A DNA stretch of 64,000 nt, from positions 768,001 through 832,000 of the forward strand of contig CAWJPJ010000006.1 in assembly GCA_963844715.1 (NCBI GenBank). The letters run 5' to 3'. Made by a program: the position numbers and the translations under genes. Under the pieces are notes generated by a model. It ran no database searches, was not told the origin of the DNA, and worked only from the letters and a program-made list of their open reading frames with translations. Shown piece by piece: positions 15,234-35,847 of this stretch (positions are counted from its first letter, which is position 1; every line of letters starts with the position of its first letter). Source of the DNA: an uncultured Phycisphaerales bacterium. GTDB taxonomy: Bacteria > Planctomycetota > Phycisphaerae > Tepidisphaerales > Tepidisphaeraceae.

Positions 15234-16613
15234 TGACCGTCGCAGGGATCTGGTGCTCGATTTATCTTGCATGTTTGCTGGTGACGGGATGGGGGGGTTT
15301 GTAGCCTCATTTTGCCCAATCGACCACGCATCGACTTTGCCGGATTTGCGGCTTGTTTAGGACCGGGAATTCTCTCACTGACGTTAATCGCTTTTTCAAT
15401 GGCGGGTTGGCGGCCAAGCCGAATCCTCATATTGTTCCTCGCTTTTGTCTGGGGCATCCTCGGAATCGTCGCGCTTCGAAAGCGATGGACTCGATTCGGG
15501 ATGAATGCGCCAGCTTTCCCCGTTTCGATGCTCTCTAAGATATGGATATTTTTTTGTCTGGCCGCGCTCGGGTACGGGATTTTTATCGTCGCACGTAAGG
15601 CGCTATTTCAATCGGTCATCGAAGGAGACGCGTTTCAAATATGGCAATTGAAGGCGAAGGTTTTGGCAACCGTTCCAATGACTCCAAGGCCGGCTTATTT
15701 TTCCGACGTCAGCTTAAGTTACAGCCACCTAAAATATCCGGTCCTATTCCCCATGCTATCTGCGGGCGTTCACGCAATGACCGGCGGCCTCAATGATGAA
15801 CTTGGAAAAGCGCCGGAACTGCTTCTATATTTGGGCATGGGCGCCGTGGTTTTCGGCGCCGTACTGGAATTCAATTGTTGGAGCGCTGCATTTGCCGCAG
15901 CGGCTCTTTTATTAACGATTCCGAATTTTCTAGCTTATGCCGGCGGCGGAATGGCAGATACGGCCTTGGCGGCGTTCTATGCGTGCGCCATCGTTTCAAT
16001 ATTGCGCTGGCAGGCTGAGCGGCGCGTTGCCGATTTGGTCGCAGCGCTGGTTTCCACAATCTGCATGGCGTGGACGAAAAATGAAGGCATGGCGCTGGCG
16101 ATAATCAATGTCCTGACGATCTTCTTGCTCACGCCCCAACCCTTAAAAATTCGACAGATTCGCCTCGCGGCCCTCTTTGCCTTGGTGTTGGGCGCGGCGA
16201 TTTTGCCCTGGATCGTCTATACCCGGGATTTGCCGGCAACGGACGAGGACTACGCGGGCCGATTGAACGTTGCTCAACTGATCGCCGGCGGGAGCCGCAT
16301 ACCCACAATTGCGCAGAGCATGCTGGGCGAATTTATGGACTGGCGCCGGTGGGGTGTATTTTGGATCGCGCTCTTGGTTGTGCAGCTTATCAATTGGCGG
16401 AGTTTGCGCAATCGATCGATTGCAACGCTCTGGTTTCTATTGATTCTGCAGATATTGGCCTATTTCCCGCCGTATATGGTGACGACATGGCACTTAGAAG
16501 AATTGCTGAGGTTTTCACAAACCCGACTTTTGCTACACGCCGCACCCGCTGCCGCTCTGATTGTGGGGCTGCAGTTGCCTCGTGACAAACCGAAGCCCAC
16601 CCAAACGGGTTGA
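15233..16613 (+). CDS. Polytopic GT-C (ArnT/PMT-like) membrane glycosyltransferase (frameshift in G-run ~15291)
   Basis: about 12 TM segments, EGDAFQIWQLKAK, HLKYPVLFP, MADT, WTKNEG. Confidence 0.7.
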
Positions 16614-16683
16614 TCAGGGATTGACCAGCCGGCTGAAGTCGATTGACTCTCTCGCCCAAACATATTCGGGCGCATCGCGCCGT

Positions 16684-16716
16684 CTTCCCTTGAGTGCGCG
16701 GGGATAAGGGATAAAA
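16684..16716. repeat. Degenerate family A REP-like hairpin
   Basis: CTTCCCTTGAGTGCGCGGGGATAAGGGATAAAA resembles the family A half. Confidence 0.4.
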
Positions 16717-16721
16717 AGTGA

Positions 16722-17073
16722 TTACATGTTTTCGAGATTTTTTGCGTGTTGAGAGCCGTCGCTTAGGTGGGTGAAATCGGGCGGCGTTGGGGGTGGCTTC
16801 AATTGGGATCGCTTGGCTTCTTTGTGGAAATGTCTGGCCCATTTTGCGCATTGGATTCCCAGCAGGAGCAAGGCGATCGCGGCGGCGATGTAGAGGAATT
16901 GGGCCAACAGGGTTCGGCGGTAGGAAATAAGTTCGTGGATGATTTGGATGATGGTTACGGCGCAGCCTATTGCGGCGATGATGCAGTACGAGCGGCTGCG
17001 GTAAGCGGCGCAGCAGGGCGGCCAGTTGGCGGATGCGCAGGCCGTTGAGTTCGTCTTCGTGCGGGTCGGTCAC
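16722..17073 (-). CDS. Small 2-TM hypothetical protein (frameshift ~17008)
   Basis: joined reading: DELNGLRIRQLA..RRAAYRSRSYCII..PDFTHLSDGSQHAKNLENM. Confidence 0.6.
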
Positions 17074-17150
17074 GGGGAAAATTCTAACTTGCGTGGTCGG
17101 CTGGCGAAAAGATGGGGCGGGGCTTAATCTTCCCGGCGGAAGGAGGCCGG

Positions 17151-18011
17151 ATGACACTTCTCCAGGCTTTGATTCTTGGTGCGCTGCAAGGTATTGCGGA
17201 ATTGTTTCCGATCAGTTCGCTGGCGCAGACGATTTTGCTGCCGGCGATGCTGAAATGGAGCATGAGCAGCCGGGAGAATCCGGATTTTCTGGCGTTTGTG
17301 GTCCTGCTGCATCTGGCGACGGCGGTCGCGCTCGTGCTCGATTTTTGGAAGGACTGGAAAATCGTCGTGCTGGCCTGGATCGGGAGCGCGAAGAAGGGGC
17401 AACTGGTTTACGACGAGGCGAGCAAGTTCGCCTGGCTGCTGGTGGCGGGGACGATCATCGTCGGAGCGATCGGACTGGTGTTTGAAAAGAAACTGCGCAA
17501 GCTGTTTGAGGACCCAAAATATATATGGGTGGTGGCGGCCGTGCTGGTGCTGAACGGCGTCATTATGATTCTGGCGGACGTCGTCAAAAAAGGAGCGGAA
17601 AAAAGGGAAGGCGAGGGGGCGCAACGGAAGCGGGCGCCGGAATTAACGTTTATCGAAGGCGCGGCAGTCGGCGCGACGCAGGCGTTTGCACTAATACCGG
17701 GGATTTCGCGCAGCGGCATGACAATCGTGGCGGGACTCCTGGCGGGGTTGAGCTACGACGAGGCGGCGCGGTTTTCGTTCATGCTGGCGACGCCGGTGAT
17801 TGGATTGGCGGCACTATTGAAAGTGCCGAGCCTGCTTAAGCCAGAGGCCCGGCACATGCTGAACGTGGGGATTCCGGCGGCGGTGGTGGCGGGCATAACG
17901 GCTTACCTAAGCACGAAATTCCTGATGCGATATTTTCGGCACAACCGGCTGGCCCCGTTCGGCGCGTTTTGTATCGTGTGGGGAGCGTTCGCGCTATATT
18001 TGCTTCATTGA
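17151..18011 (+). CDS. uppP: Undecaprenyl-diphosphate phosphatase
   Basis: LQGIAELFPISS, HLAT, LIPGISRSG, AARFSF. Confidence 0.95.
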   Translation: MTLLQALILGALQGIAELFPISSLAQTILLPAMLKWSMSSRENPDFLAFVVLLHLATAVALVLDFWKDWKIVVLAWIGSAKKGQLVYDEASKFAWLLVAGTIIVGAIGLVFEKKLRKLFEDPKYIWVVAAVLVLNGVIMILADVVKKGAEKREGEGAQRKRAPELTFIEGAAVGATQAFALIPGISRSGMTIVAGLLAGLSYDEAARFSFMLATPVIGLAALLKVPSLLKPEARHMLNVGIPAAVVAGITAYLSTKFLMRYFRHNRLAPFGAFCIVWGAFALYLLH

Positions 18012-18894: not shown

Positions 18895-19014
18895 TCGCGC
18901 GGATCGCTGCGGGGAAGGCTCGCGGCATCGCGGCTGATGGATTCGAAGCGATTTGCGAGGGATTTTGAGGCGGCGTATCGCGCGATGTGGAAGAACTGGT
19001 GCGCGGGGCGGTAG
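18895..19014 (+). pseudogene. C-terminal relic of a TPR-GT41 gene
   Basis: GSLRGRLAASRLMDSKRFARDFEAAYRAMWKNWCAGR* matches the C-termini of the four full paralogues; no upstream body. Confidence 0.75.
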
Positions 19015-19031
19015 CATGTACGATCAGAATA

Positions 19032-20771
19032 ATGATGGAGTCTTTGGATCATGCGAGGGCGTATTTGCAGGCGGGCCGATTGGCTGAGGCGGAGCGCGCT
19101 TGCCGGGGAGTTTTGGAACGGGAGAAAGGGAATGCGGATGCGCTCCATTTGCTGGGGATCGTTCTGTTTAAAACGGGGCGGGCAAAAGAGGGAGAGGGGT
19201 TCGTACGCGAGTCGCTGAGGGCGTCACCGGGGCGCGGGGATTTTTATTGCAATCTGGGGGTTTTGATCGCGGAGGAAAAACCTTTCGAGGCGGCGCAGCT
19301 TCTGCGCAAGGCGCTGGATTTGCGGCCCGGAGATGCGCAGACGGCGATCAACCTGGGCGGGATTCTGGAGAGACTTGGGAGGGTGGACGAGTCGGCGGCG
19401 GTGCTAAGGCGGGCAGTGGACATGCGTCCGGATTCGGCCGATGCGCGATTGAATCTCGGAAATGCGCTCAAAGAAATCGGGCGGATGGAGGAGGCGATCG
19501 ATCATTACCGACGCGCGGTGGAATTGGCGCCGGCGGACGCGGAGCTGCATGGAAATCTTCTGTTCATGCTGCATTTTGATTGGCGCTGCGGGCCAGGGGA
19601 ATTGCTCGCGGAGCATCGGCGGTGGGCGCAGCGGCATATGGAGAAGCTGAAGCCGACGGCGCTCTCGTTTGAGAATGATCGGAGCCCGCAGAGGCGGTTG
19701 CGCGTGGGGTATGTGTCGGCGGAGTTTCGGATTCAGCCGGTGGGCCGGTTTATTTTGCCGCTGCTGGCGGCGCATGACAAACAGGGTTTTGAGATTTTTT
19801 GTTACGACACCGGGTCTGCGCCGATGCGTTTACGGCGCGGCTGCGGGCGCACGCGGATGTCTGGCGGGAGGTGGGGAAACTCTCGGACGAGGAGATTGCC
19901 CGGCAGGTTCGCGCGGATCGGATCGATATTCTCGTCGATCTGAACATGCACCTGAGGAGCGGGCGATTGGGGGTTTTTGCGCAAGCCGGCGCCGGTGCAG
20001 GTGACTTATCTGGCTTACACCGGGACCACGGGGCTGGAGACGATCGACTATCGGATCACCGATCCATATCTCGACCCCGCCGATTCGGATGACTTTTATT
20101 CGGAGAAGTCGGCGAAGTTGACGCGAAGTTACTGGTGCTTTCAGCCGGTGATGGATTTGGAAGTCTCGGAGCTGCCGGCGGAGAAGACCGGGTATGTGAC
20201 ATTCGGGGCGCTGAACAATTTTATCAAGACAAGTCCGGCGGCGCTGGAGACGTGGGGGCGGATTTTGGCGCGGCTGCCCGGATCGCGGCTGATGATTTTT
20301 ACCGTGGAGGGCCAACATCGGAATCGGCTCCGGGAAATGTTTGGGAAAATGGGGGTCGAGGGGGAGCGCGTGGAGTTTGCGGGGAGAAATTCGATGGGAG
20401 AATACATGAAACTATTCCATCGGATTGATATCGCGCTGGATTCGTTTCCTTACGCGGGGGGAACGACGAGTTGCGACGCGCTGTGGATGGGCGTGCCGGT
20501 TGTCACCCTGGCGGGCAAGACGGCGATTGGGCGCGGCGGCGTGAGTATTTTGAGCAATATCGGGCTGGGGGATTTGATCGCCGGGACGACGGAAGAGTAT
20601 GTCGAGACCGCCGTGAAACTCGCGGGGGATCACGGGCGGCTGAAGGAATTACGACGGACCATGCGAGACCGGATGCGGGCGTCGCCGCTGATGGATGCGA
20701 AGGGATTCGCGGCGGATATGGAGAGAATTTACGCCGAGATTTGGAAAAAATGGTGCGCGGGAGGGGATTGA
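19032..20771 (+). CDS. TPR + GT41 (OGT/SPINDLY-like) glycosyltransferase (2 frameshifts)
   Basis: TPRs; RLRVGYVS, IDILVDL, KPAPVQ, LNNFIK, DSFPYAGGTTSCDALWMGVPV. Confidence 0.92.
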
Positions 20772-20812: not shown

Positions 20813-21465
20813 TTGAGCGTCGTCGAAGCTACACCTGCGCGAAAGGCAACGAAACTCGGCGTGGCGGTCGTTTTAATCGGGCTGCTGGCGTGGTTCGTGG
20901 GGGCGAATTTCGGGTCATGGAAGGATCGGTTTTTTCCGCGCAAGTTTCGGGAAGTCGATCCGGGGATGGTGTATGCCAGCGGGCAGATCAATCAGCATTT
21001 AATCCGGCAGGTTCTGGTCGATCACAAAATCAAATGCGTGATTTGCCTCGATCCCGACGATCTGAACGATCCGGACGTCGCGGCGGAAGTGGCGGTTTGC
21101 CGGGAATTGGGGATCGATCGATTTGTGTTTCCGCTGCGCGGGGATGGGACCGGGGATATTCACGAATACGCGGACGCGGTGGCGCAGATCGTGGCGGCGA
21201 CAAAGGCGAATGAGCCAGTGCTGTTGCATTGCTCGAGCGGGCGCAGAGGTCGAACGGGGCGACGTTTTATTATCGCGTGCTTGTGGAGGGGAAGCCGGCG
21301 CAGGATGCGATGGAGGAAATGTTCCGCAACGGACACAACCCGGCGGAAAATACGCTGCTGATTCCTTATTTGAACGAGCATATGGGGGAGATGGCAAATT
21401 TACTGGTGGAAAAGGGAGTGATCGCTTCGGTTCCGAACCCAATTCCTGTGATTCATTATCCTTGA
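20813..21465 (+). CDS. Membrane-anchored protein-tyrosine/dual-specificity phosphatase-like protein (frameshift ~21241)
   Basis: FREVDPGMVYASGQ, PVLLHCSSG(AQ)RS CX5R loop. Confidence 0.8.
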
Positions 21466-22388
21466 ATGGCGGAGGATCCGGTGCAACAAGTTGCATCGGC
21501 TTCGCTGATCGCTTGATTTGCTATACGGCGGTTGCCAGGCCGGGTTGTGGGGGGAAAGGTGCGCATTGAGACCGGGGCTTGTTCCTGGACTTCCAGAGTG
21601 GTGACCTGGAAGGAGGCGAGATGGGCCTGGCCGAAGGAGGTTGTGATGGCGACGTCGGTGGCGTCCCGGCCTCGGGCCATGACAATGCGGCCGATGCGGG
21701 GCATGTTGTGGCGGGCGTCGAAGGAATACCACTGGCCGTTGAGGAACACTTCGGTCCAGGCGCTGAAATCCATGGGCATCGGGCAGAAGGGGACGCCGAT
21801 GTCGCCCAAATAGCCGGTAACGTAGCGCGCGGGAATATTGAGGCAGCGGAGCATGGTGATAAGCAAGTGTGAGAAATCGCGGCAGACGCCGCGGCGTTCC
21901 TGGTAAACGTCGTAGGCGGTTTTGGTGGCGCGGGCGTGCTCGTACCCGAAGGTGACGTGGTTGTGGACCCAGTCGCTGACGGCCTGGACGCGCGGCCAGC
22001 CGAGGGGCGTGTTGCCGAAGAGGTTCCAGGCGACGTCGGAGAGCCGGTCGGTTTCGCAGTAGCGGCTGCCGAGCAGGAATTGGATGGCATCCGGCGGCAG
22101 GTCGTCGATGGACCACTGGTGGGCGGTCGGATTGACGGGGTCGGGGATGCCGGAATCGCGGACCATGTTCTCCAGCCACAGGTGGAGACGGCCCGGCGGG
22201 GCGAGAATTCGGCCGCAGCGGTTGCCGAAGCTGTCGGTGAAGGTGGAAATGGGCATGAAGGGATCAGATTGGATTCGCTCGGGGGCTAAAAGGCTGTTGG
22301 CCCGGCTGGGATGCGTGTAAAGCATCAGCAGCATGGGCGTTGGGGCGAAAAGATCAAAAACGAGATCGAAGCCAGTGCGAATCAACAT
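21456..22388 (-). CDS. Transglutaminase-like protein
   Basis: SRYCETD, GVCRDFSHL, PARYVTGYL, DFSAW, GRDATDVA. Confidence 0.92.
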   Translation of the reverse strand: MLIRTGFDLVFDLFAPTPMLLMLYTHPSRANSLLAPERIQSDPFMPISTFTDSFGNRCGRILAPPGRLHLWLENMVRDSGIPDPVNPTAHQWSIDDLPPDAIQFLLGSRYCETDRLSDVAWNLFGNTPLGWPRVQAVSDWVHNHVTFGYEHARATKTAYDVYQERRGVCRDFSHLLITMLRCLNIPARYVTGYLGDIGVPFCPMPMDFSAWTEVFLNGQWYSFDARHNMPRIGRIVMARGRDATDVAITTSFGQAHLASFQVTTLEVQEQAPVSMRTFPPTTRPGNRRIANQAISEADATCCTGSSAIQG

Positions 22389-22487: not shown

Positions 22488-23642
22488 CTAGGAAAAAATT
22501 CGCTGGATGAGATCGGATAAGACTTTATGTGAATCAAAGTGGTGCTGGGCTATCTCGCGGGCGGCTGCGGCATGATGAGAGGGGTTTTCGGCGATTTTGT
22601 TCAGAGCCGCGGCCGCATCATCGACGCAGGTGAATGGGAAGAGCCCGTCGCCGGTGGGGAGCCATTGTTCGAAACCGCTGGCCTGGGTGACCACGGGCTT
22701 CCCGCTGGCTAAATAGGCAGCGCTGCGGTCGCTGAACCAGCCACTAGGCAAGCCCGCGTAGATTTCCTTGGCAACGGTGAATTCGCCCGCACTATCGGCG
22801 ATGAATTGCGCAAAGGAAGGACAACTGAGCGTTGCCTGGGCGGGATCGACGATTTTCCAGCCGGCGTTTGCAAATTGCAAAGCAGTGGGTTCAGGCATGG
22901 CGAGCATGCCGAGGACCATTTCCCATGGGACACGCTTAGGCAGGTCGAGGACCTTCATCCACTCGACGCCTTTGCTACTGTGAAAGCGCTTACCGTCGAA
23001 TTCGAGATTGCGATCAGAGGTGTGCTCCCATTTTCCGATGGTCGTGAATGTTTTGTTCGTGGTGGGCCGGACCGGCCAGTGATCCAGGGCGATGGGCTGG
23101 TTGGTGGGGATCCAGTCGAAGCCATGGGAAGGAAGCGGGCAGGCGGGCGTCCCGATGAGCCGGCCGAACGTGGCGATGCGATCAAACTGTTTGTAGTAGT
23201 TGAGGAAATCGGCGTCGTGGCGCATGCGAAGCTGCGTGAAGACAGGGTCGGTGTCGATAACGGCGGTGCGTTTGGGGCGCGGGCGAGATTCGCGGATCGG
23301 GGTGACGCCGCTGACGCAGAGGAGGAGATCCGCGCGGGCGAGAAGAGCGTTTAGTTCGTCGCGGGTTTGGCCGTAGTGTTTGTCTTCGAATTCGGAGTAG
23401 TAACAGTAGCGAAGAGGCAGGCCGTAGTGTTTGAAGGTGCGCTCGAGATACTCGCGGCCGTAAGTGGAATCGGCGCCGCATTGCCAGGTGAGAGGGTTGT
23501 AGGGATAGGAGTAAGAGCCGCTGTCTTCGAGAAACCAGACTTCGTGGCCGAGTTGGTGAAGGCCGAGGAGATAGTTGAGGTGGTGCCAGGTCATGCCACC
23601 GAGGGGATAGGCGATGATGTAGCCGCCGACCACAATAGTCAT
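22488..23642 (-). CDS. Uncharacterised GT-B-fold glycosyltransferase-like protein (paralogue 1)
   Basis: PLGGMTWHHLNYLLGL, IDTDPVF, SGWFSDRSAAYLASGKPVV, AAAREIA. Confidence 0.8.
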   Translation of the reverse strand: MTIVVGGYIIAYPLGGMTWHHLNYLLGLHQLGHEVWFLEDSGSYSYPYNPLTWQCGADSTYGREYLERTFKHYGLPLRYCYYSEFEDKHYGQTRDELNALLARADLLLCVSGVTPIRESRPRPKRTAVIDTDPVFTQLRMRHDADFLNYYKQFDRIATFGRLIGTPACPLPSHGFDWIPTNQPIALDHWPVRPTTNKTFTTIGKWEHTSDRNLEFDGKRFHSSKGVEWMKVLDLPKRVPWEMVLGMLAMPEPTALQFANAGWKIVDPAQATLSCPSFAQFIADSAGEFTVAKEIYAGLPSGWFSDRSAAYLASGKPVVTQASGFEQWLPTGDGLFPFTCVDDAAAALNKIAENPSHHAAAAREIAQHHFDSHKVLSDLIQRIFS

Positions 23643-23648
23643 GAGTGG

Positions 23649-23772
23649 GAAACCCGAAACCAGAAATCCGAATGACGAATCAAATCCGAATGTCCGAATG
23701 ACCGAATGAGTGCCATTCGGGCATTGGGGCATTCGGGTTTGATTCTGGTTTCTGGTTTCGTCATTCGGGATT
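23649..23772. repeat. Family B hairpin inside an operon
   Basis: about 55 nt nearly identical to the 11384 copy; fills the spacer between the two GT paralogues. Confidence 0.85.
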
Positions 23773-23775
23773 GTC

Positions 23776-24964
23776 TCAAATGTCGTCGATCATTTTAGTA
23801 AGCACTCGATCCGGCGCGAGATATTCTCGCGCAATTTCATACGCGGCGGCGCGGTGGATTTCCGGGTTTTCCGAAATTTCCTTTAGGCCTCGGACGGCTT
23901 CTTTCATTGTATTGAACGCTATGACCCCCCTGCCGCTGGGGATGAACTTGCTCCAGGCGGTGTCCTGGACTACCGCGGGTCTGCCGGCGGCCAGGTAGCA
24001 GGCGGTGCGGCAACTGAACCAGCCGGAGCGGGTGGCGACGTAGATGTTTTTCGCGACGGACCATTCGCCGGCGCTTTTTTTGATGAGGGATTGATAGGAC
24101 TCGGGGGTGAGCGTTGTTTTGTGGGCGTTGAGGAGTTTCCAGCCGTCGCGGCGGATGCGGGCGTTTGGGGTTTTGGACCCCCCTACCGCCAGCGCGAGGG
24201 GCACATCGGTGCGTCTGGGAAGATTGTGGAATTTTCCGTACTCGAAGACTTTGGTGAAATAGCGACTTCCCTTGTGAACGACGCGGCCTTTGTACCAGTC
24301 CCAGGTCATGATGGTGGTCATCGGGGCATTTTTGGGAGGCGGAGCGGCGCGGATCGCGGACCACTCGGGGAGCGTGACCACGCAGCGGGTGGTTTTCCAA
24401 TTGAAATTGCCGCGCGGAACGCGGCAGTCGCGCTTGCCGATGTTCTCGGCATACGTGAAATGCTGGTCGTGGGCGGCGACCATGTCGGCCCAGCGGTCGA
24501 CGTTGTCGTGCCATTTGAAACGCTCGACGAGCATGATCTGGTTGTAACCCGGATCGGTGTCGAGAAATATTTTGGTGCAGCGCGGGGAGAGGTCCTCGGG
24601 AATGATGCAGGCGCCGCTGACGTTCAGAAAGATGTCGGCGGTTTTGGCGAATTTTCGGAAAGCCTGGCCGGACATGCCGAAGTGTTTGTCGTGAAGAAAA
24701 TAATAGTGCCACTTTTTGGCCAGTTGCGGGGCATGAGTTTTGAAAAAGTGGGTCAGGAAATTGACGGTGTAATCGGGTTTATCGACGGGGGCGCTGGACG
24801 GGATCGTAAGGCCAGACCCAGGTGTCTTCGTGATAGACGACGTCGTGCCCGAGTTCGTGCAGGCCGAGGAGGTAGTGGAAATAATCCCAGGCGACGCCGC
24901 CCAGGGGGAATTGGCCGACCATCCCGCCGACGATGATGCGAAGTTTTTGGGATTTTTTGGTCAT
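23776..24964 (-). CDS. Uncharacterised GT-B-fold glycosyltransferase-like protein (paralogue 2; frameshift ~24790)
   Basis: PLGGVAWDYFHYLLGL, LDTDPGY, SGWFSCRTACYLAAGRPAV. Confidence 0.8.
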
Positions 24965-26767
24965 CCGGCGGCAGTGGGCTGTTGGAGCTTGAGTTGCTGC
25001 CGGGCCATGTTGAAGTAGACGCCGCCGCGCGCGACGAGCTGGTCGTGGCGCCCGGATTCGACGATGCGGCCCTCGTCCATGACGAAGATTTGATCGCAAT
25101 CGGCGACGGTGCTGAGGCGGTGGCTGACGAGAATGATGGTGCGGTGCTTTTTGAGTCGGCCAAGCGTTTCGATGATGAGGGCCTCGTGCTGGGGATCGAG
25201 GGCGCTGGTCGGTTCGTCGAGGACGAGGATGGGGGCCTCGGTGAGCAGAGCGCGGGCGATGCCGATGCGCTGGCGCTGACCCCCGGAGAGATTGCCGCCG
25301 CTTTCGTCGATCAGAGTCTCGTATTTTTGGGGGAGTTTATCGATGAAGATATCCGCGCCCGCGATTTCCGCGGCGTGGCGGATTTGCGGGAGGGTGGCCT
25401 GGGGGCGGCCGTAGGCTATGTTTTCCTTGACTGTCGTGGGAAGAATGAGACTGTCCTGAAGGACCAGCGCAACGTGGGCGCGGAGGTCGACGATTTTGAT
25501 TTTGCGGAGGTCATACTGGTCGAGGCGGATGGCGCCTGAGACGGGATCGTAGAAACGGGGGATGAGATTCAGCAGCGTTGTTTTGCCCACGCCGCTGGAG
25601 CCGACGAATGCGACGAGTTCGCCGGGTTTGATGGTGACGTCGATCTCGCGGAGCACGGATTCGCCCGGGCGGTATTCGAAGGAGACCTTGTCGAACGCGA
25701 GGGTGCGAGGCTGGCGCGGGAGGCGGACGGCATCGGGGGCGTCCTTGATGACGGGGTCGCGATCGAGCACTTCGAAAACGCGCTGAGCCCCGGCAACGCC
25801 GCTTTGGATGCTCGCGCCGCTGCCGCTGACGGCTTGGAGGGGCGCGTAAACCTGATTGACATAGGCGAGAAAGGGATAGAGCGCGCCGATCGGTAAACGC
25901 CGAGTGGAGGATGAGCCAGCCCCCGTAACCGAAGATGAGGGCGTAGCCGATGCCGAAGATGGTGCCGACGGTGAGCCAGTAGAAGGAATCCTGCCAGGCC
26001 TGGCGGATATTGGCGCGGTTGCTGTTGAGGACGGAATTTTGGAACTGAGAGAATTCATCAGCTTCGCGCCCGAAGGCCTGGACGAGTCCGATCGAGGCAA
26101 CGGAACGCTGAATGACCGTGGTGAGTTTGCTGTCCACGTCCTTGGCTTCGAGCCAGCGGCGCTTGAGGGGGCCGGCGAAGAGCTTGGTGACCCAAAGGAG
26201 AAGCGGCGCGACGGACAAAGTAATCAACGCCAACTTCCAATTGATCTGCACCATGATGACGGTCATGAACAGGAGCGTGCAAAGGCTCACGACGATACTG
26301 TTGACGAAAACGGTGAGAATGGTCTGAAAACCGGTGGCGTCGTAACTGAGACGATAAATGGCGTCGCCCTGAGGCTGGGATTTGTGATAGGCAAGGCTGA
26401 GCTGCTGGAGTTTTTCGAAGAGATCGCAGCGGACGCGCATGAGGCCGTTGTATCCGATTTGCACATTGATCAGGCGCTGCGCCATGGCCAGCAGTTCCTG
26501 GGCGATGCGCAAGCCGACGGAGAGACCGGCCAGAAGAAGGACCTGGCGCAGGGCATGGTGATCAAAGCCGAGGGCGTGGGAGAGGACGACGAAGGCGCGA
26601 GTGCCCCAGGTGTGGTCGAATTGCCCGAGGCAGATAGTGATGAGAATTCCAACCAGGAGCGGCTGGACGACGTTGGCGAGTGTGGAGAAAGCGATGAGGA
26701 CGAGCGAGAGGATGATCAACGGGAGATCATCGCGGAAATAACGGAGGGCTCGGAGGTAGAAGCGCAT
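24961..26767 (-). CDS. ABC exporter, fused permease/ATPase, MsbA-like (frameshift ~25885)
   Basis: TMD plus GSSGVGKT, LSGGQRQR, LDEPTSALD, SHRLST. Confidence 0.93.
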
Positions 26768-26785
26768 GAATTCGATAGTGATCGA

Positions 26786-29431
26786 TCAGGCAACGGAGAG
26801 TTCGCCGTCCTCGTCGAGGGCGTCGCCGGGTTGCGGGACGGCGGGCATGGGCTGAGCCGGCGCCGGTTCGGGCGGGAGGGGAATATATCCCGCCTGCTCC
26901 GCCGCATGGTCGATCAGCCCCAAAACTGGCACGGTCACGCGCCGCCGATTGACCAGGTACATGGCCCACCAGGCCAAGGGTATTAAAACAGCCGGACGAC
27001 TAAAGGGCCAGAGATGCAGGAGCAGAAGTCCGGCCAGAATGAGGGCCCCCACCATCAGGACCTGGCCAAATCGGCTTTGCAATAGCTCGACGCGCACGCG
27101 CGTAAGCATGCCTTTGCCATGGTGATGTTCCGTGGCGGTGGTGAGGCGGACTTTAACGTAGCGGGAGCCGTAGATTTCCAGGTCCCATTCGCCCCAGCCG
27201 CTGTCTTCGCGCATGCGCCAGCCGACCTGGCGGACCTCACGGGAAATTTGCTCGAGAAGAGGGAGGCGATCCTTGTAATCGCTCCAATAGCGCAGGATGC
27301 GCTGGTCGGCGGGATCAATAGGGAGGGGCGTGTTCCGGTTGTAGCCGCGGGCTTCATTTTTGAGAATTTTGTTTCGCAGCCGGACGCTGTAGCGGGCCCA
27401 GCCGCGCGTCATGGGCTGGCGGAAATGCAAAAAGGCGATGAGGAAGCACGAGAGAGGATGACGATGCCGCGGCATGGGGGCCTGCCAGGCGGCGACGAAG
27501 GAAAGAATGATCGGCGTGACGAACATCAGCGCCGCCACGATCAGAAGCGGGAACCAGGCGAGCCCCAGCAGCGTGACGAACATGCCCAGCAGGTGCCATT
27601 CGACGCTCATCATCATCATGGCCAGCATCGAAGCGGGCCGGCGATAGATGGTTTGGAAGAGGCCGGTTCCGAAAATGCCGTGGTAGATGACGTCGGTTCC
27701 GACGCGGACGCCGATGGAGTCGCTGCCGTATATTTTTCCGCGCCAGTGGCTGGCGCCGAGCGTGTTGAAGCGATCCGGATGTTTGTATTTGAGAAGGGCC
27801 TCGGCTTCGCCGTAGCCGCGCTGCTGTTTGAGATAGGCTTTGACGGTGTTGCGGCGATAGTGCCAGACCTGCGCGGCGGGCGAGAACCCGATGGACCGGC
27901 CGGCGTTTTGGATCCGCCAGATGAGATCGACGTCGTCGCCGGCTTTTCGGAACTGGGAGTCGAAGCCGTTCACCTGCTTGAGGACTTTCGGTGTAGAAGG
28001 CCATGTTGCAGCCGGGGACGTGCTCGGCGGTGCGATCGTCGATCATGACGTGAGTCGGCCCGCCGGGCGAGAGGCCGACGCAATCGGCGATCCAGGAGCC
28101 TTCGTCGGGGATGAGATTGGGCCCGCCGATGCCGGCGTGGCCGCTGCGAACCAGGGCGAGGGCGAGGTAGTAGAGCCAATCTTCGTCGGCCTCGCAGTCG
28201 CTGTCGGTGTAAACGACAACGTCGCCGCGGGCGGCATTCATTCCCACGTTGCGGGCGTAGGAGAGGCCCTTGTTTTCCTGCTGGATGTTGCGAACCCACG
28301 GGAATTCCTTGAGAATTTCCTGCGTGTTATCGGTGGAGCCGTCGTCGACGAAAATCACTTCGTAGCTTGGATACCGGAGTTTGTGCAGGGACCGCAGGCA
28401 GGAGCGCGACGGTGCTGGCGCCGTTGTAAGAGCAGACGACGATCGAGCACATCGGGCAGCTCGACCTCGGCGGTTTGCGGAACCTTGGCGAAAAGCCCGC
28501 GCAGCGCCGCGAAGGCCGGCTTGGGCTGGCGGTCGCGCGTGGTGACGCCGAAGGCCCAGTCGTCGACCTGATAGCCGTGGGTGAACCAGTCGTCGGTGAA
28601 GCTGAAGATGAAGGTGCCGGCCAGGCCCTCATCGAAAACGGCGCGCACGTGGGCGCAGAGAATTTCGGATTGCTTCTGCGGAGAGAATTCGCGGAAGGTG
28701 TCGATCCCGTATTCGCCGAGCATCAGAGGCTTTTCGCCGGCGATGTTTTGCAGGCGGGCCAGATAATTTCGGAATACCTGCTCATCGTGCAGGTAAACGT
28801 TGAAGCAGACGAAGTCGATGCCGCGGGGATTGACGTATTCGGTGGTCGGGAAATTGGCGAAGGTAGCCAGGCAGTCCGGGGCTTCTTCCTTCACGGTTTC
28901 GACCAGGTCGTCGATGAATTCCTCGATTTTGTCGCGGCCTACGAAGCGGACGATGTCCGGGGGGATTTCGTTGGCGACGCTGATCGCGAAAATGGCGGGA
29001 TGATTGCCGCAGGTTTGGGCGGCTTTGCGGACGGTGTCGTGGGCGTGCTGAGTGAGTTCGCGGTTGCCGACGAAGGTGAGGTTCTTAGCCCAGGCGACGT
29101 CGAGAAAAATCTTCAGGCCCATTTCCTGCGCGAGATCGAGGAACCAGGGGGGCGGAAGATGGTAGATGCGAAGGCAGTTGACGCCCAGATCGAGCATCTG
29201 CTGGAAATCGAGGCGGACTTGCTTTGGATCAGGCAGAGGCTCGCCGTCCTGGCCGGGTTTGAAGGGGCCGTAGGTGACGCCCTTCACATAGAATTTGTCA
29301 GCTCCGAGGCGGAAGAATTTGCCGTCGCGTCGGACGCGATTGGTGATGGGCTGGATGACGCGATGGCGGCCGCCCTTGGGACGGCGGGTTTCCGCGGGTG
29401 CGGAAGATTGAATGGTCGCGCGGGAGAACAC
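26786..29431 (-). CDS. Clan GH-A (GH2/GH5-like) TIM barrel - GT2 - TM fusion protein (frameshifts ~28405 and ~27988)
   Basis: VKGVTYGPF, VANE, LGEYG; SIVVCSYNG, VDDGSTD, TDSDC, GCNMAF, GDDVD, QQRGYG; C-terminal TMs. Confidence 0.88.
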
Positions 29432-29705
29432 GGAAAGACTTCCACTCCTGGTGGCCCGATAAATTCAGGGCATTTAGCCCGCCACCTTCATATCAAATTC
29501 GGCCGTTCCCAGCCTATTCTAGATCAGTTTCCGCGGTGGGGCTATGCAAATCATGCCGCCGACAACGGATATGATAATAGACAACCAATATGAGGGCGTG
29601 TTAGGAAAATGTTATCGACTTGGTTCCACAGGTACGTCCGATAAGTAAAGGAGCGGATCGAGGGACGACTGAGGGGTTTGAAAATCGTTTATGATCGCCG
29701 CGCGC

Positions 29706-31859
29706 ATGACCAAGGGGATCTTCGAGACCGGGCAGAGGCATCATCTCGCGGGGAGACTGGCCGAGGCGCAGCAGGCTTACAGGCAGGTCCTGGCGATCGA
29801 GCCTGGGAACGTGGATGCACTGCACATGCTGGGGGTGACGGAGCTTCAGCTCGGGAGATTTTCCTCTGCGGAAGAATTGATCGGGCGGGCAATTCGAGGG
29901 TCTCCCAATCGCGCGGATATTCACGGAAACATGGGACTGGTCTATTCCGGCTCCGGGAAGACGGAGCGCGCGATTTCGGAATTTCGGGCGGCGCTGAAGA
30001 TCCAGCCTAATTATCCGGAGGCGCGGAATAATCTGGGGTTCGAGCTGGCGAAACTGGGGCGAATCGACGAGGCGATTTCGGAGTATCGGGCGGCGCTGGG
30101 TCTTCGGCCGGATTATCTGGCAGCGATGAGAAATCTGGGAATGTGCGCTCCAGGATCGGGGAGATTACGCGGGGGCGGTGGCCCAACTGGAGCGCGTGGC
30201 GGCCGCGCTGCCCGGCGTCGCGGAAGTGCAGAACGATCTTGGGAACGCCCTGAGGAACGCCGGACGCCTGGATGATTCGGCGGCGGCGCTTTCGCAAGCC
30301 CTGCGCATCCGCCCGGATTTTCCCAAAGCGCACAACAACATGGGGCGCGTTCTGCATATTCGAGGGAATTTGCCGGCGGCGATCGCGGCGTATCGCCGGG
30401 CGATCGAGCTAAGCCCGGATTTTGCCGCGGCGTGGAGCAACTTGACGGTCGCGCTGGGGGAAACATTTGATTTCGATGGAGCGGCCGAGGCGGGCCGCAA
30501 GGCCGTCGAGATCGCGCCGGAATTTCCCTTTGGGCATATCAATCTGGCGAACGTGCTGAAAGAGACCGGGGAGATGGAGACGGCCCTGTTTCATTGGGAC
30601 CGGGCCCGCAAGCTCGATCCAAGGCTGGTTCTTGCGCACAGCAACCGGATTTTTGGAATGCATTTTCATCCCGGATTCGATTCGGCGGCAATTTTGGCGG
30701 AAAGCCGGGAATTCAATCGCATTTATGCCGAGCCGCTGCGGGGGAAGATTCAGGCCCATACCAACGTCCCCGATCCGGACCGGCGGCTGCGGATCGGCTA
30801 TGTTTCGCCGGATTTTTACCAGCAGGCGGTTTCGCATTACGTGGTGTCGCTGCTGGAATCGCATCGGCATGATGAGTTTGAGATTTTCTGTTACAGCTCG
30901 GTGGAGAGGCCGGATTGGATCACCGAACGCGAGAAACGAGTGGCGGATGTTTGGCGGGAGGTGCTGTATCAGCCGGATGAGCGCGTGGCGGAGATAATTC
31001 GGGAGGACCGGATCGACATTCTGGTGGACCTGAGCATGCACATGCGGGGGCACCGGCTGCTGATCTTTGCGCGAAAGCCGGCGCCGGTGCAGGCGACGTG
31101 GGTGGCGTATCCAAGCGGAACGGGGTTGAACGCGATCGACTATCGGATTACCGATCCGTACATGGATCCCGAGCCGGATCCGCAACCGGCGGTTTATAGC
31201 GAGAAGTCGATCCGGACGAGCGGGTATTGGGGATGTTACGATCCGCTGGAGGATACGCCGGTAAATCCCGTGCGGCCGGATGGGCCGGTTGTGTTCGGGT
31301 CGCTGAACAATCCGATGAAACTGAATGAGGGAACGCTACGGCTCTGGGCGGAAGTATTGCGGGCGGCGCCGGAGACGCGGCTGCTCATGATGGTGACCTC
31401 GGAGGGACATCGGCGAAAGGTAAAAGAAATCCTGGCCGAGAGCGGCGTGGCCGAATCGCGGGTGGAATTTGTGTGGCGGACGTCGCGGGTGGAATATCTG
31501 CGGAATTACCATCGGATCGATCTGTGCCTGGATACGCTGTCCTATAACGGGAGCACGACGGCGTGCGATTCGCTCTGGATGGGGGTGCCGATCGTGACTT
31601 TGCCGGGGAATACGGCTTGCGGCCGGGTGGGGATGAGCACAATGGTGAATGTGGGATTGCCGGCGCTGGTTGCGCGGACGCCGGCGGATTTTGTTAGGAT
31701 CGCCGTGGATTGGGCGGGAGATGCCGGGCGGCTGGCGCACTGGAGGCGCGGGCTGCGCGAGCAGATGCGGAACAGCCCGATCATGGATCGGCGCGGTTTG
31801 CGGCCGACGTTGAGGGGGCGTATCGGCAAATGTGGCGACTGTGGTGCGAGAGCCGATGA
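29706..31859 (+). CDS. TPR + GT41 glycosyltransferase A (2 frameshifts)
   Basis: multiple TPRs; RLRIGYVSPDF, RKPAPVQ, LNNPMK, NGSTTACDSLWMGVP. Confidence 0.92.
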
Positions 31860-34008
31860 GTGACGCCAGTTTCAAGCTCGGGCAGCAGCACCATTTGGCG
31901 GGACGATTGGCCGAAGCGCAGGGGATTTATCGGGAAATTTTCGCGCGGGAGCCGGGGCATCTGGATGCGCTGCATCTCTTGGGGGTCACGGAACTTCAAT
32001 TGGGGAGAGCGAGCGCAGCCGAGGAGATGATCGGGCGGGCGATCGCGGCGCAGCCGAGCCGCGCGGAGTTTCACGGGAACATGGGGCTGGTTTATGCGAC
32101 GCTGGGGAAGCGCGATCTGGCAATCGCGGAATTTCAGACGGCGCTGCGGCTGCGGCCGAGTTATCCCGAAGCGCATAACAATCTGGGAATCGAGCTGGCG
32201 CATCGCCGGGAGTTTGACAAGGCGATATCGGAATACCAGGCGGCGATCGCCCTGCGCCCGAATTTTGCCGATGCGCTCAGCAATCTGGGATCGGCGCTGA
32301 TCGACATGGGGAGGCATCAGGAAGCGGTTCAGGTGCTGCAACAGGCGGTGGCGCTGAAACCGAATTTCGCCGAGGCGTATAACAATCTCGGGAATGCATT
32401 GCGCCTGACGGGAAGGATCGACGAGGCGATCGCCTCGCTGAAGCGCGTGCTGGAGATGCGCCCCGATATGGCCGGAGCGCACAGCAACCTGGGGTGCATT
32501 CTGCACGCGCAGGGAAAACTCACGGAGGCGATGGTCGAGTTTCGGCGGGCCATCGAGCTTCAGCCGAACTATGCCGCCGCCTGGAGCAATTATTCGGCGG
32601 TGCTGACCGACGCGAACGAACACGATCAGGCATTGGCGGCGGCGGAAAAGGGAGTGGAATTCGGGCCGAATTCGCTGCCGGCGCACAATAATCTGGCGGT
32701 GGTGCTCAAAGAAGCGGGGCAGATGGATCGGGCCATGGAAGAGTTGACCGCCGCGATGAAACTCGCGCCCTGGTCGGCCGAAGCGCACAGCAATCGAATC
32801 TTCTGCATGCACTTTCATCCGGACTACGACGCGGCGGCGCTTTTGGCGGAGTGCAAGGAGTGGAATCGCGTGCATGGTGAGCCGCTGCGGCGGGAGATTC
32901 GGGCCTGGTCGAATTCGCCGGACCCGGAGCGACGGCTGAAAATCGGGTATGTCTCCCCGGATTTTTTTGCCCAGGCGGAGGCGCACTATGTGTTGCCCCT
33001 CTTGGAGTCGCACGATGCCCGGAATTTTGAAGTGCATGGCTACGCATCGGTGATTCGGCCCGACGCGGTGACGGAACGCGTGAGGCGGGCGTGTCATGTC
33101 TGGCACGATATTTTGCACCTGTCGCATCACGAGGCGGCGCGGAAAATCAGGGAAGACAAGATCGATATCCTCGTCGACCTGACCATGCATATGAGGAACA
33201 ACCGGCTGCTGATTTTCGCCGCAAGCCGGCGCCGGTGCAGGCGACCTGGCTGGCTTATCCGAGCGGGACGGGGGTCGAGGCGATTGATTATCGGTTTACC
33301 GATCCCTATCTCGATCCCGAGCCGGACCCGGAGCCGGCGGTTTACAGCGAGAGATCGATTCGGCTGGCGGCGTATTGGGGATGTTACGATCCGCTCATCG
33401 AAATTGAGCCAAGCCCGCCCCGACGCGACGGACCGATTGTTTTTGGTTCGATGAATAATCCGACCAAGCTGAACGAAAAGACGCTGCGGCTTTGGTCGGA
33501 CGTATTGCGTGCCGTTCCGGATTCGCATTTGCTCGTGCATGTATATTCGCAGCCGCATCGGGAGAGTATTACGCGATTGATGGGGGAATGCGGGGTGGAA
33601 TCCTCGCGGCTGGAATTCGTGGGGCGATCGTCGCGGCCGGATTATTTAAGGACCTTCCAGCGGATTGATCTGTGCCTGGATGCGCTGCCCTATAACGGAA
33701 GCACGACGGCTTGTGACGGGCTTTGGATGGGAGTGCCGATGGTTACGCTGGTCGGAAACACCGGCTGCGGTCGGGTCGGCATGAGCACGATGGTCAACGT
33801 CGGATTGCCGGAGCTGGTGGCGCACAGCCCGGAGGAATTTGTGAGAATCGCCACAGATTGGGCGGGCGATTTGAAGCGGCTGGGACATTGGCGGCAGAAC
33901 CTGCGGGAGACCATGCGGAACAGCCCGATCATGAATCGGAAACAATTTGTCGAAAGTATGGAGGCGGCGTATCGCCGGATGTGGCGGAAGTGGTGCGAAG
34001 GCCGATGA
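31856..34008 (+). CDS. TPR + GT41 glycosyltransferase B (frameshift ~33218)
   Basis: same motifs as A and closely similar to it; ATGA coupling. Confidence 0.92.
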
Positions 34009-35847
34009 GCGACGTGCTTTTTCAGCGCGGGGAGAGCTTATTCAAGGCGGGCAAGGTGCCGGAGGCGATCGCGGCGTATCGGGCGGCGATTGCCGCCGAC
34101 CCGAAACTCGCTCAGCGGCATAATAATCTCGCCAACGCCTTGATGGCCGCGGGACAGACGGAGGCGGCGATCGAGTCGTTCCGGAATGCGCTGAAACTGC
34201 TGCCGGGGTCGGCGGCGGTGGAGTTCAATCTGGGGAGCGTGCTGGCGAATGCGGGGAGGGTCGAAGAGGCGCTTGTGCATCTGCGGCGGGCGCTGGAGTT
34301 GAAGCCCGGGGATCCGGACATCGAAAACAACTTTGCCAATGCGCTCCTTGCGGCGGGGTATGCCGCGGAAGCGGCGATGATGCTTCGGCATACAGTGTCG
34401 GTGCGGCCGCGGGACCCGCGATATGTGATGAATCTCGCCAATACGCTGAGGGCCTTGGGCGAACTGGATGAGCCGATCCAGCTATTTCAGCGGGCGTTGG
34501 AATTGAGGCCGGGGTGGGGCGAGGCGTTCAACAATCTGGGAGTTTGCTGGGTGGAGCGCGGGGAAATGGCGCGGGGAATCGCGGCACTTCGAAAAGCGAC
34601 GGAGTTGCCGCCCGATTTCGCGGCGGCGGAGAGTAATCTGGTTTTCTATCTGCAATTTCTGCTGGAATACGACGCTGCGCGGCTGCTGGAGGAGCACCGG
34701 AAGTGGGATCGGCGGCATGCGCAGCCGCTGGCGGGACAAATCGCGCCGTTTGGGAATAACCGGAATCCCCAGAGGAGATTGCGCGTGGGGTATGTTTCGC
34801 CCGATTTTCGCAGGCATTGCCAAGCATTTTTTACCCTTCCGCTTTTTTCGAATCACGATCACGGGAACTTCGAGATTTTTTGCTATTCGAGCGTTATGCC
34901 GGCGGATGAGAATACGGCCCGGATCAAGGGGCTGGCGGATGTGTGGCGGGAGTGCCATGGGAAGAGCGATGCGCAGGTCGCGGAGATGATTCGGGCCGAT
35001 GCCATCGACATTCTGGTGGATTTGACAATGCACATGGCCAACGGGCGGCCGCTGCTGTTTGCGCGGAAGCCGGCACCAATTCAAGTGGCTTGGCTCGCGT
35101 ATCCGGGGACCACGGGGATGGGGACGATGGATTATCGGATTACTGATCCTTATCTCGATCCGCCTGGGGTGGGGAATGAGTTTTATAGCGAGACGTCTTA
35201 TCGGTTGGGCGACACGTTCTGGTGTTATGATCCGCTGGGGGGCGATCCGGGGGTGCAAGCACCCCCGGCCTCGCGGAATGGGTTCATCACATTCGGGTGT
35301 TTGAATGCGGCTCGGAAAATTAACGATCGGACGTTGGGGTTGTGGCGATTGGTGCTGGAGGCGGTACCCGGGTCGCGGATAATTGTGATGTTTCCAGAGG
35401 GGATGGGGCGCGAGGAATTGGTTGGAAAACTCGGCGTTGCGCGGCAGCGGGTGGAGTTTGTGGCGTCTCAGCCTCGGGCCAAGTATATGGAAACTTACGG
35501 GCGGATCGACATCGGACTCGACACGCTTCCATATAATGGGCACACGACGACTCTGGATTCGTTTTGGATGGGCGTGCCGGTGATTACACGAGTTGGAGAT
35601 ACAGTGGCCGGGCGGGCGGGGTGGAGCCAGTTGAGCAATCTAAAGCTGGCCGAACTGGCGGGACATTCGGACGAAGAGTTTGTGCGTCATCGCCGTGGGG
35701 CTGGCGGGTGATCTGGGGCGACTGACGGAATTGCGAAAGACGCTGCGGGAGAGGATGAAGGCGTCGCCGCTCATGGATGGGGCGAAATTCGCGCGGAATA
35801 TGGAAAGCGCGTTTCGGGAAATGTGGCGGAAGTGGTGCACTGCATGA
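34005..35847 (+). CDS. TPR + GT41 glycosyltransferase C (frameshift ~35684)
   Basis: TPRs; GYVSPDFRRH, LNAARK, PYNGHTTTLDSFWMGVP; ATGA coupling. Confidence 0.92.

Follow-up and report, generated by a model that had tools for sequence, protein, structure and literature searches.

A glycoside hydrolase-glycosyltransferase fusion and a dedicated ABC exporter as the core of a candidate system for short beta-glucan synthesis and export

A fusion protein and its exporter form the core of the system

Our analysis of a 64,000-nucleotide stretch of the genome of an uncultured Phycisphaerales bacterium of the family Tepidisphaeraceae (contig CAWJPJ010000006.1 of GenBank assembly GCA_963844715.1, positions 768,001 to 832,000 of the forward strand; hereafter, the window) identified four co-directional genes on the minus strand, spanning 29431-22488. 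They encode a fusion of a clan GH-A glycoside hydrolase (GH) domain with a family 2 glycosyltransferase (GT2) domain, an ATP-binding cassette (ABC) exporter and two paralogous GT-B fold proteins (GT-B1 and GT-B2). The fusion and the exporter are the core of a real, widespread and uncharacterized system, a variant of a cytoplasmic build-cut-export logic, to which the GT-B proteins, present in zero to three copies, are accessory. We give a probability of roughly 0.5 to the reading that this system builds, cuts and exports a short beta-glucan. The genes are as follows:

26786..29431, minus strand: gene of the GH-A/GT2/membrane fusion, 880 amino acids when in frame, with breaks at ~28455, ~28404 and ~27990
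24961..26767, minus strand: type IV ABC exporter (transmembrane plus nucleotide-binding domain) of a family that tracks the fusion, with a +1 break at ~25890
23776..24964, minus strand: GT-B fold protein 1, with a -2 break at ~24790
22488..23642, minus strand: GT-B fold protein 2, intact, 384 amino acids, 32% identity to protein 1

The fusion and exporter genes are 18 nucleotides apart, and the exporter stop overlaps GT-B1 by 4 nucleotides. The 133-nucleotide gap between GT-B1 and GT-B2, which are only 3 nucleotides apart in the same-genus genome G001, is occupied by a palindromic repeat, to which 82 sites across the genome are similar. GT-B2 starts at 23642; a longer open reading frame (ORF) from 23732 reads through this repeat. 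An earlier reading of the letters and ORFs alone (hereafter, the sequence-only reading) had described four tightly spaced co-directional genes, and the motifs it named were all found where it placed them. Motifs located in the present analysis are VANE (28978-28967), LGEYG (28720-28706), DDGS (28346), TDSDC (28208), GDDVD (27940) and QQRGYG (27826) in the fusion, Walker A (25602) and LSGGQ (25290) in the exporter, SGWFSCR (24027) in GT-B1 and SGWFSDR (22745) in GT-B2. Pfam assigns PF02836/PF03198 followed by PF00535 to the fusion, PF00664 and PF00005 to the exporter, and sub-threshold PF13524 to GT-B1 and GT-B2. Both same-genus genomes, and 5 of the 20 relative loci, have all four genes in this order, which is beyond chance.

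Co-occurrence of the genes across genomes

The fusion and exporter are assigned to the core, and the GT-B proteins to the accessory part, because of co-occurrence counts across genomes. Among 41 relatives, which are kin and not independent and include the unpublished genome G004, 22 carry the fusion, one of them as a partial copy at the edge of a contig. The exporter is present in 21 and GT-B in 16 of the 22, the six in which this query found no GT-B including a 95%-complete genome of four contigs, and neither partner was found in the other 19. An even sample of 151 Verrucomicrobiota genomes (sample centre, G051; G069 fed the exporter profile) contained the fusion in 10; exporter and GT-B were both present in the same eight of these and in none of the remaining 141, and exporter and fusion are unlinked in four of the eight genomes carrying both. 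These contrasts bear out the dedicated ABC exporter that had been proposed. Finally, 35 genomes carry a stand-alone fusion, and 28 of them have a member of the exporter family (scores of at least 259 bits, where other ABC proteins reach 181 at most; 3 of the 28 genomes fed the profile) and 23 a GT-B gene.

Physical linkage is looser. At the 20 relative loci the exporter follows the fusion in 17 (in two with a prepilin-type gene between; scores of L033 and L034 are identical), GT-B is present in nine and both paralogues in five. Of 80 GTDB loci, 54 have 6 kb or more of downstream sequence; in these the exporter is the next gene in 13, and GT-B occurs in 11, acetyltransferases in 3, YdjC in 2 and APH kinases in 1. 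Of 80 metagenome loci (79 scored), 48 have at least 2.5 kb downstream; the exporter family is found in 18 of these and is the next gene in 16. Verrucomicrobiota copies of the fusion lie mostly among housekeeping genes. When 152 sequences were placed on a midpoint-rooted tree, most of the stand-alone copies grouped into three clades, and exporter-linked copies, labelled by hand, were spread over several deep branches. The four-gene neighbourhood therefore does not stand as a general layout, the partners usually being encoded elsewhere in the same genomes; likewise, the GT-B pair keeps its place through co-occurrence with the fusion, as an accessory.

Two recurrent neighbours were observed at these loci. 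Prepilin-type (N-methyl/DUF1559-like) genes recur beside the fusion in L033, L056, L079, L099, L102 and L110, and the unlinked Verrucomicrobiota GT-B gene often adjoins a CbiX-like chelatase gene (L131:10005-10838 and nine similar loci).

Domain anatomy and conservation of the fusion protein

The fusion is made up of the following parts, numbered where needed after its nearest intact relative, P0001:

28475..29350, minus strand: clan GH-A TIM (triosephosphate isomerase) barrel, nearest GH157, with acid/base Glu at 28969-28967 and nucleophile Glu at 28714-28712
27750..28455, minus strand: GT2 (GT-A) catalytic domain, nearest MftF, with DDGS, DSD, GDDVD and QQxGYG
27640..27750, minus strand: conserved aromatic loop from GT2 to the first hairpin, with W562, Y567, Y582, G584, F591 and Y595 (P0001 numbering)
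27484..27604, minus strand: first hydrophobic hairpin, predicted two transmembrane helices, mapped from P0001
27079..27298, minus strand: small alpha/beta domain with a conserved W-D-x-E motif, of no named family
26896..27073, minus strand: second hydrophobic hairpin, predicted two transmembrane helices, from model and hydropathy

The structural model of P0001 (predicted local distance difference test [pLDDT] 90.3, predicted template modelling score 0.85) comprises the barrel, the GT-A domain, a helical hairpin, the small alpha/beta domain and a second hairpin. Hydropathy analysis of 66 sequences detected no 11-residue stretch reaching 2.0 in the leader, hence no signal peptide, nor any helix separating the GH from the GT2 domain; because of these two results, both catalytic domains are predicted to be cytoplasmic. 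Only two hydrophobic regions were present, residues 609-642 and 789-822, both after GT2, which would be too few helices for a BcsA-type channel. The protein is membrane-anchored in nearly all members. The anatomy described in the sequence-only reading (a GH-A barrel lacking a signal peptide, then GT2, then a C-terminal membrane part) is upheld, together with the cytoplasmic placement of the GH domain. The C-terminal alpha/beta domain gave no PDB sequence match below E 8.5, and Atlas matches below 0.9, to hypothetical proteins.

A search confined to proteins of 572-2000 amino acids retrieved 6474 family matches among 7995 scored candidates, and PF00535 was present in all 120 of the fusion-family matches listed. 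GT2 follows the GH domain in 110 of the best 150 representatives at 50% identity; the other 40 either end within the GH domain (15) or look by eye like truncations or frameshifts (25). The GH-GT2 fusion is thus the standard form of the family. Both GH glutamates, noted earlier as kept, are invariant in 66/66 full-length members (alignment down to 31% identity) and 152/152 locus-derived sequences and present in 137/141 representatives spanning both sites, all sets having been picked for their likeness to the query, a choice that favours conserved residues. A single record, P0148, is a natural GH-GT2-ABC exporter triple fusion of 1421 amino acids, whose membrane part scores 206 bits on the exporter-family profile.

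Longer variants of the fusion (P0166, P0168, P0149 and P0148) carry NHL repeats at the C terminus, a further GT2 at the N terminus or the fused ABC exporter.

The GH domain is probably nearest to GH157

The GH domain has the features of clan GH-A: a TIM barrel, an acid/base Glu after beta-4 (in an NE motif) and a nucleophile Glu on beta-7. Its best PDB sequence match is LaGH157, and its profile scores 78.7 bits against 58.3 for the best GH2. The Glu of LGEYG aligns with the residue mutated in the LaGH157 E224A structure 9G4N, which holds laminaritriose, and the LaGH157 structures (9FZ9, 9G4N and 9G5G) contain laminari-oligosaccharides. Fold comparison gave Z 31.1 for 9G4N (root-mean-square deviation [rmsd] 3.0, 308 residues aligned) versus Z 29.5 for GH2. 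PF02836 matches 39 of 41 GH domains and PF03198 (GH72 glucanosyltransferase) 36, while PF00332 (GH17) matches none of the 41 at E<=0.01. These profile and fold comparisons point to the beta-1,3-glucanase family GH157, and not GH17, as probably the nearest.

The NE, NxY, E(F/Y)G and DxW motifs of GH157 enzymes (LaGH157 and BcellWH2_01931) align with this domain. The accessible text of PMC10229575 describes a Bacteroides GH157 as cleaving linear beta-1,3-glucan, with a predicted surface-located, catabolic role, whereas the domain analyzed here is predicted to be cytoplasmic and is fused to a synthase. GH2 beta-glucuronidases are characterized, in the parts available of PMC5145203 and PMC10535898, by N-terminal beta-sandwich domains and an N-K motif; the first of these mentions GH2 hybrids carrying glycosyl transferase modules only as having been excluded. 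The domain does not fit a GH2 beta-glucuronidase, as the barrel starts at about residue 30 and the glucuronidase NKKG aligns to WaFG.

The GT2 domain resembles MftF

The best NCBIfam match of the GT2 domain is MftF (TIGR03965; 150.9 bits, residues 312-567), followed by EpsD (114.9, in two stretches) and PgaC/IcaA (85.4); weak GT21 (PF13506) matches were also found, and PDB matches of the GT2 profile are confined to the nucleotide-binding half. At the QxxRW position, its register inferred from position, the family reads QQxGYG (G in 62/66, Y in 64/66), so that the tryptophan is replaced. According to the portion consulted of PMC7491314, MftF builds a chain of up to nine beta-1,4-glucoses on the tyrosine hydroxyl of a small tyrosine-derived cofactor. 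It is likewise a membrane-anchored GT2 that builds short beta-glucose chains, and the match covers the whole GT2 domain; however, MftF lacks the fused GH domain and the extra membrane part, and no mft gene recurs among the neighbours of the fusion.

The aromatic loop that follows GT2 is a candidate primer or acceptor site. Its tyrosines are conserved to different degrees (Y567 in 62/66, Y595 in 57/66 and Y582 in 47/66), with Y567 at 27730 and Y595 at 27646 of the window. The conserved tyrosines make a self-priming model testable but are no evidence for self-priming.

The ABC exporter and the GT-B proteins

A close intact orthologue of the exporter scores 385 bits on TIGR02203 (MsbA), 328 on PRK13657 and 259 on TIGR01192. 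Across the three proteins tested, scores were 385-455 for MsbA (cut-off 602), up to 319 for TIGR01192 (cut-off 585) and up to 403 for PRK13657 (cut-off 733), below every listed NCBIfam cut-off except that of the broad CydC model. By score, these exporters belong neither to the ChvA/NdvA glucan exporters nor to the MsbA lipid A flippases, and their PDB matches are generic.

The GT-B fold claimed for the two paralogous proteins is supported by modelling and Foldseek: the model of GT-B2 (pLDDT 95.9) has two Rossmann domains and matches mannosyl- and alpha-glucosyltransferases at E ~1e-10, resembling GT4-type retaining enzymes at 10-16% identity. The pair belongs to no NCBIfam family, scores 23.8 and 17.1 bits on PF13524 (CgeB-like), below the gathering cut-off of 25, and its profile reaches a best E of 0.059 against PDB sequences. 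By eye, GT-B2 has no Glu where we take the EX7E motif of retaining GT4-type GT-B enzymes to lie. The proteins therefore share the GT-B fold with GT4-type and CgeB-like PF13524 enzymes but differ from them in low identity, sub-cut-off score and the missing EX7E Glu.

The reading frames are probably broken by assembly error

Comparison with intact relatives located five breaks in three genes: +1 at ~28455, ~28404 and ~27990 in the fusion, +1 at ~25890 in the exporter and -2 at ~24790 in GT-B1. Short-read contigs near-identical to the window, from four runs of one soil study that is possibly the source sample, do not have the extra base at 27990 (run X2) or at 25890 (X1 and X2), and those of run X2 supply the two bases that the window is missing at 24790. 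The correction was not seen in these contigs at ~28404 and ~28455, but relatives are in frame there. Deleting the three extra bases from the fusion gives 880 codons, the length of P0001 (880 amino acids), which is 86-93% identical over the three pieces. The frameshift repair that the sequence-only reading had called for is thus backed by short reads at three of the five breaks, and the relatives are intact. Assembly error is the likely cause, since an unrelated Cgs-type gene of the same genome is likewise split.

Proposed mechanism and alternative explanations

On the beta-glucan reading, the system would be an assembly line on the inner membrane face, where a short chain is built, cut to size and exported. 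The MftF-like GT2 would add a beta-linked hexose, most likely glucose from uridine diphosphate-glucose, singly to a protein- or membrane-held acceptor. With two hairpins as its whole membrane part and the QxxRW tryptophan missing, the protein would not itself thread the chain across the membrane. The GH157-like domain, predicted to be a retaining endo-beta-glucanase, would free the chain from its acceptor and so set its length, hydrolysis yielding linear and transglycosylation cyclic chains. Where present, one to three GT4-like GT-B proteins may add alpha-linked side sugars, lineage-specific acetyltransferases, kinases or a YdjC deacetylase could add further variety, and the product would reach the periplasm or cell surface through the ABC protein. 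The synthesis-and-export idea of the sequence-only reading survives in its cytoplasmic GH domain with intact glutamates and its exporter; nothing tested favours its cyclization step over hydrolysis, and the GT2 resembles MftF and not a channel-forming processive synthase.

Several observations weigh against the beta-glucan reading. Identity of the GH domain to LaGH157 is only 18-20%, and a wide fold search ties the GH2 beta-galacturonidase 6NCW (Z 29.4, rmsd 2.9, 285 residues) with GH157 9FZ9 (Z 29.3, rmsd 2.8, 303 residues), for which reasons the family likeness points only weakly to beta-1,3-glucan specificity. The MftF score falls below the TIGR03965 cut-off of 280. GH157 likeness suggests beta-1,3 and MftF likeness beta-1,4 linkages, so one of the two assignments may be loose. 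The exporter matches MsbA better than it does PRK13657, the model of glucan exporters. A member of its family was unseen in 6 of the 35 genomes (of unstated completeness) with a stand-alone fusion and intermediate in one, and the relatives and three Verrucomicrobiota genomes contributed to its profile. The kinship of the relatives and the selection of the conservation sets, given above, count in the same direction. Moreover, one fusion homologue is labelled Acidimicrobiia, a group not known to have an outer membrane, in which a soluble periplasmic glucan would be lost.

The main rival, which we consider somewhat unlikely, is a lipid-linked product: GT2 would oligoglycosylate a membrane lipid or polyprenyl carrier, the GH domain trim or proofread the head group, GT-B cap it and the MsbA-like ABC protein flip the glycolipid. 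This would fit the exporter ranking, a GT2 that has membrane hairpins, no channel and a tyrosine in place of the QxxRW tryptophan, the weak GT21 matches and the Acidimicrobiia-labelled homologue, as well as a source genome in which a Cgs-type synthase, beside an ABC gene of its own, is already present. However, the neighbours in the surveyed loci include no recurrent initiating phosphoglycosyl transferase, ligase or lipid enzyme, ranks of ABC models do not identify a substrate, and an always-fused, always-intact glycosidase is more simply explained as a release step. Glycosylation of a small metabolite in the manner of MftF, with the GH domain reversing or trimming it and the ABC protein exporting the conjugate, appears improbable: the best GT2 match does act on a small tyrosine-derived cofactor, and APH-type kinases and acetyltransferases occur in some loci, but no aglycone biosynthetic gene recurs in the surveyed neighbourhoods and nearly all members are anchored in the membrane. 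Decay of the cluster into pseudogenes, or an accidental grouping of glycan genes, could account for the five frameshifts and for the layout missing from most Verrucomicrobiota loci; it is very improbable and already largely refuted by the short-read contigs, the split in the unrelated Cgs-type gene, the intact relatives and a co-occurrence that is tight even when the genes are unlinked.

Within the beta-glucan reading, the sub-case of a cyclic periplasmic glucan, closed by transglycosylation in the GH domain, is unlikely. Retaining clan GH-A chemistry permits transglycosylation, PF03198 matches most of the GH domains and Cgs itself cyclizes in the cytoplasm; yet the nearest characterized family, GH157, is hydrolytic, no tested sequence feature separates hydrolase from cyclase, and hhalign gives a probability of 2.3% for homology to a Cgs-type protein, and a Cgs-type gene coexists with the fusion in the source genome and several relatives. 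More doubtful still is a second, independent cyclic-glucan machine in which an MftF-type GT2, self-primed on Y567 or Y595, would make a beta-1,3-glucan that the GH157-like barrel cyclizes and releases in the cytoplasm and its own exporter removes, the logic of Cgs realized with entirely unrelated parts. The precedents are the tyrosine hydroxyl that MftF glucosylates and the Tyr694 primer of Cgs.

Flanking genes and sequence features

One further feature lies within the cluster:

23650..23772, no strand: REP (repetitive extragenic palindromic)-like repeat with 59-nucleotide arms, which separates the two GT-B genes and lies outside the system

A promoter scan returned 0 sites, terminators were no more frequent than in shuffles, and the plasmid collection gave no match at E<=1e-40. 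A transglutaminase-like gene lies directly after the cluster (window 21456-22388, minus strand); it was rejected as a member of the system, being beside the cluster only in two same-genus genomes among the 20 loci. Tandem tetratricopeptide repeat and GT41 (OGT/SPINDLY-like) genes, several frameshifted, occupy window 18987-20771 and 29691-36941 (plus strand). The genome has ~62 GT41-like sites, a large expansion, and a GT41 array flanks the cluster in G001 too. About 4.5 kb beyond the cluster, on the opposite strand, are genes for a GT-C-like membrane protein (weak PMT_2) and a BacA undecaprenyl-diphosphatase (window 15312-18011, plus strand). Elsewhere in the source genome, a GT2-YdjC fusion adjoins a GT87 gene at L148:5841-7574 (G000:C3).

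Distribution and significance

The closest named homologues of the fusion are labelled Tepidisphaeraceae/Phycisphaerae, and record labels of the family include Planctomycetota, Verrucomicrobiota, one cyanobacterium, Alphaproteobacteria and Acidimicrobiia; Singulisphaera acidiphila DSM 18658 and Scytonema sp. HK-05 are among the named isolates with the cluster. One conserved system, carried by many soil and freshwater bacteria, takes in thousands of proteins with no annotation beyond "GT2" or "O-antigen biosynthesis protein". It suggests that these abundant and mostly uncultured bacteria make an envelope or secreted glycan that has yet to be isolated from them. The compact two-gene core makes it amenable to expression and testing. 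No study of the GH-A/GT2 fusion or the cluster was found in a literature search whose reach into subscription journals was poor, and the accessible portions of PMC5352709 and PMC12243196 do not mention it.

A bioRxiv preprint on Planctomycetota, in its available part, reports GH157 "laminarinases" as enriched in and typical of Tepidisphaerales. The sole domain matching the GH profile in the source genome is that of the biosynthetic fusion, and the preprint's counts in this order may correspond to it, in which case their ecological reading may need correcting.

Comparison with known glycan synthesis systems

Like the pseudomonad NdvB/"Orphan" GH17-GT2 cyclic beta-1,3-glucan synthase, the fusion is a single protein in which a clan GH-A domain precedes GT2, and NdvB was among the analogues first proposed. 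The analogy fails on topology and family. NdvB is described, in the portion consulted of PMC10237404, as having a signal peptide, a periplasmic GH17 domain that three transmembrane helices separate from GT2, the motif QRFRW and a BcsA-like channel, whereas the fusion has no signal, no intervening helix, no PF00332 match, the motif QQxGY and an ABC exporter. A search of the 41 genomes for MdoG found none.

Cgs/Cgt is the better analogue. The available text of PMC10901819 (see also PMC11842490) describes Cgs as having all soluble domains in the cytoplasm, a compact transmembrane domain without an export channel, a Tyr694 primer and the ABC exporter Cgt. Similarly, the system analyzed here has a single membrane protein with cytoplasmic transferase and glycan-cutting domains (as predicted from hydropathy and model), no channel and a separate ABC exporter. 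On the other hand, Cgs has ~2900 amino acids, with GT84, a PF10091-type cyclizing domain and GH94, while the 880-residue fusion has an MftF-type GT2, a clan GH-A barrel, no GH94 and, by Pfam, no Cgs domains; the fusion system also has GT-B partners, and its exporter is below the ChvA cut-offs. The fusion was rejected as a replacement for Cgs, as the source genome has its own Cgs-type gene (PF10091 and GH94; G000:C7 ~962700-974700, L146; split here and 2915 amino acids in G002) with an adjoining ABC exporter gene, and several relatives carry both. Since there is no homology to a Cgs-type protein and the source genome encodes one elsewhere, the product is probably a different glycan. A close match to a characterized pathway, which would have refuted the sequence-only reading, was not found, and by analogy the fusion system would work like Cgs/Cgt without being a member of that family.

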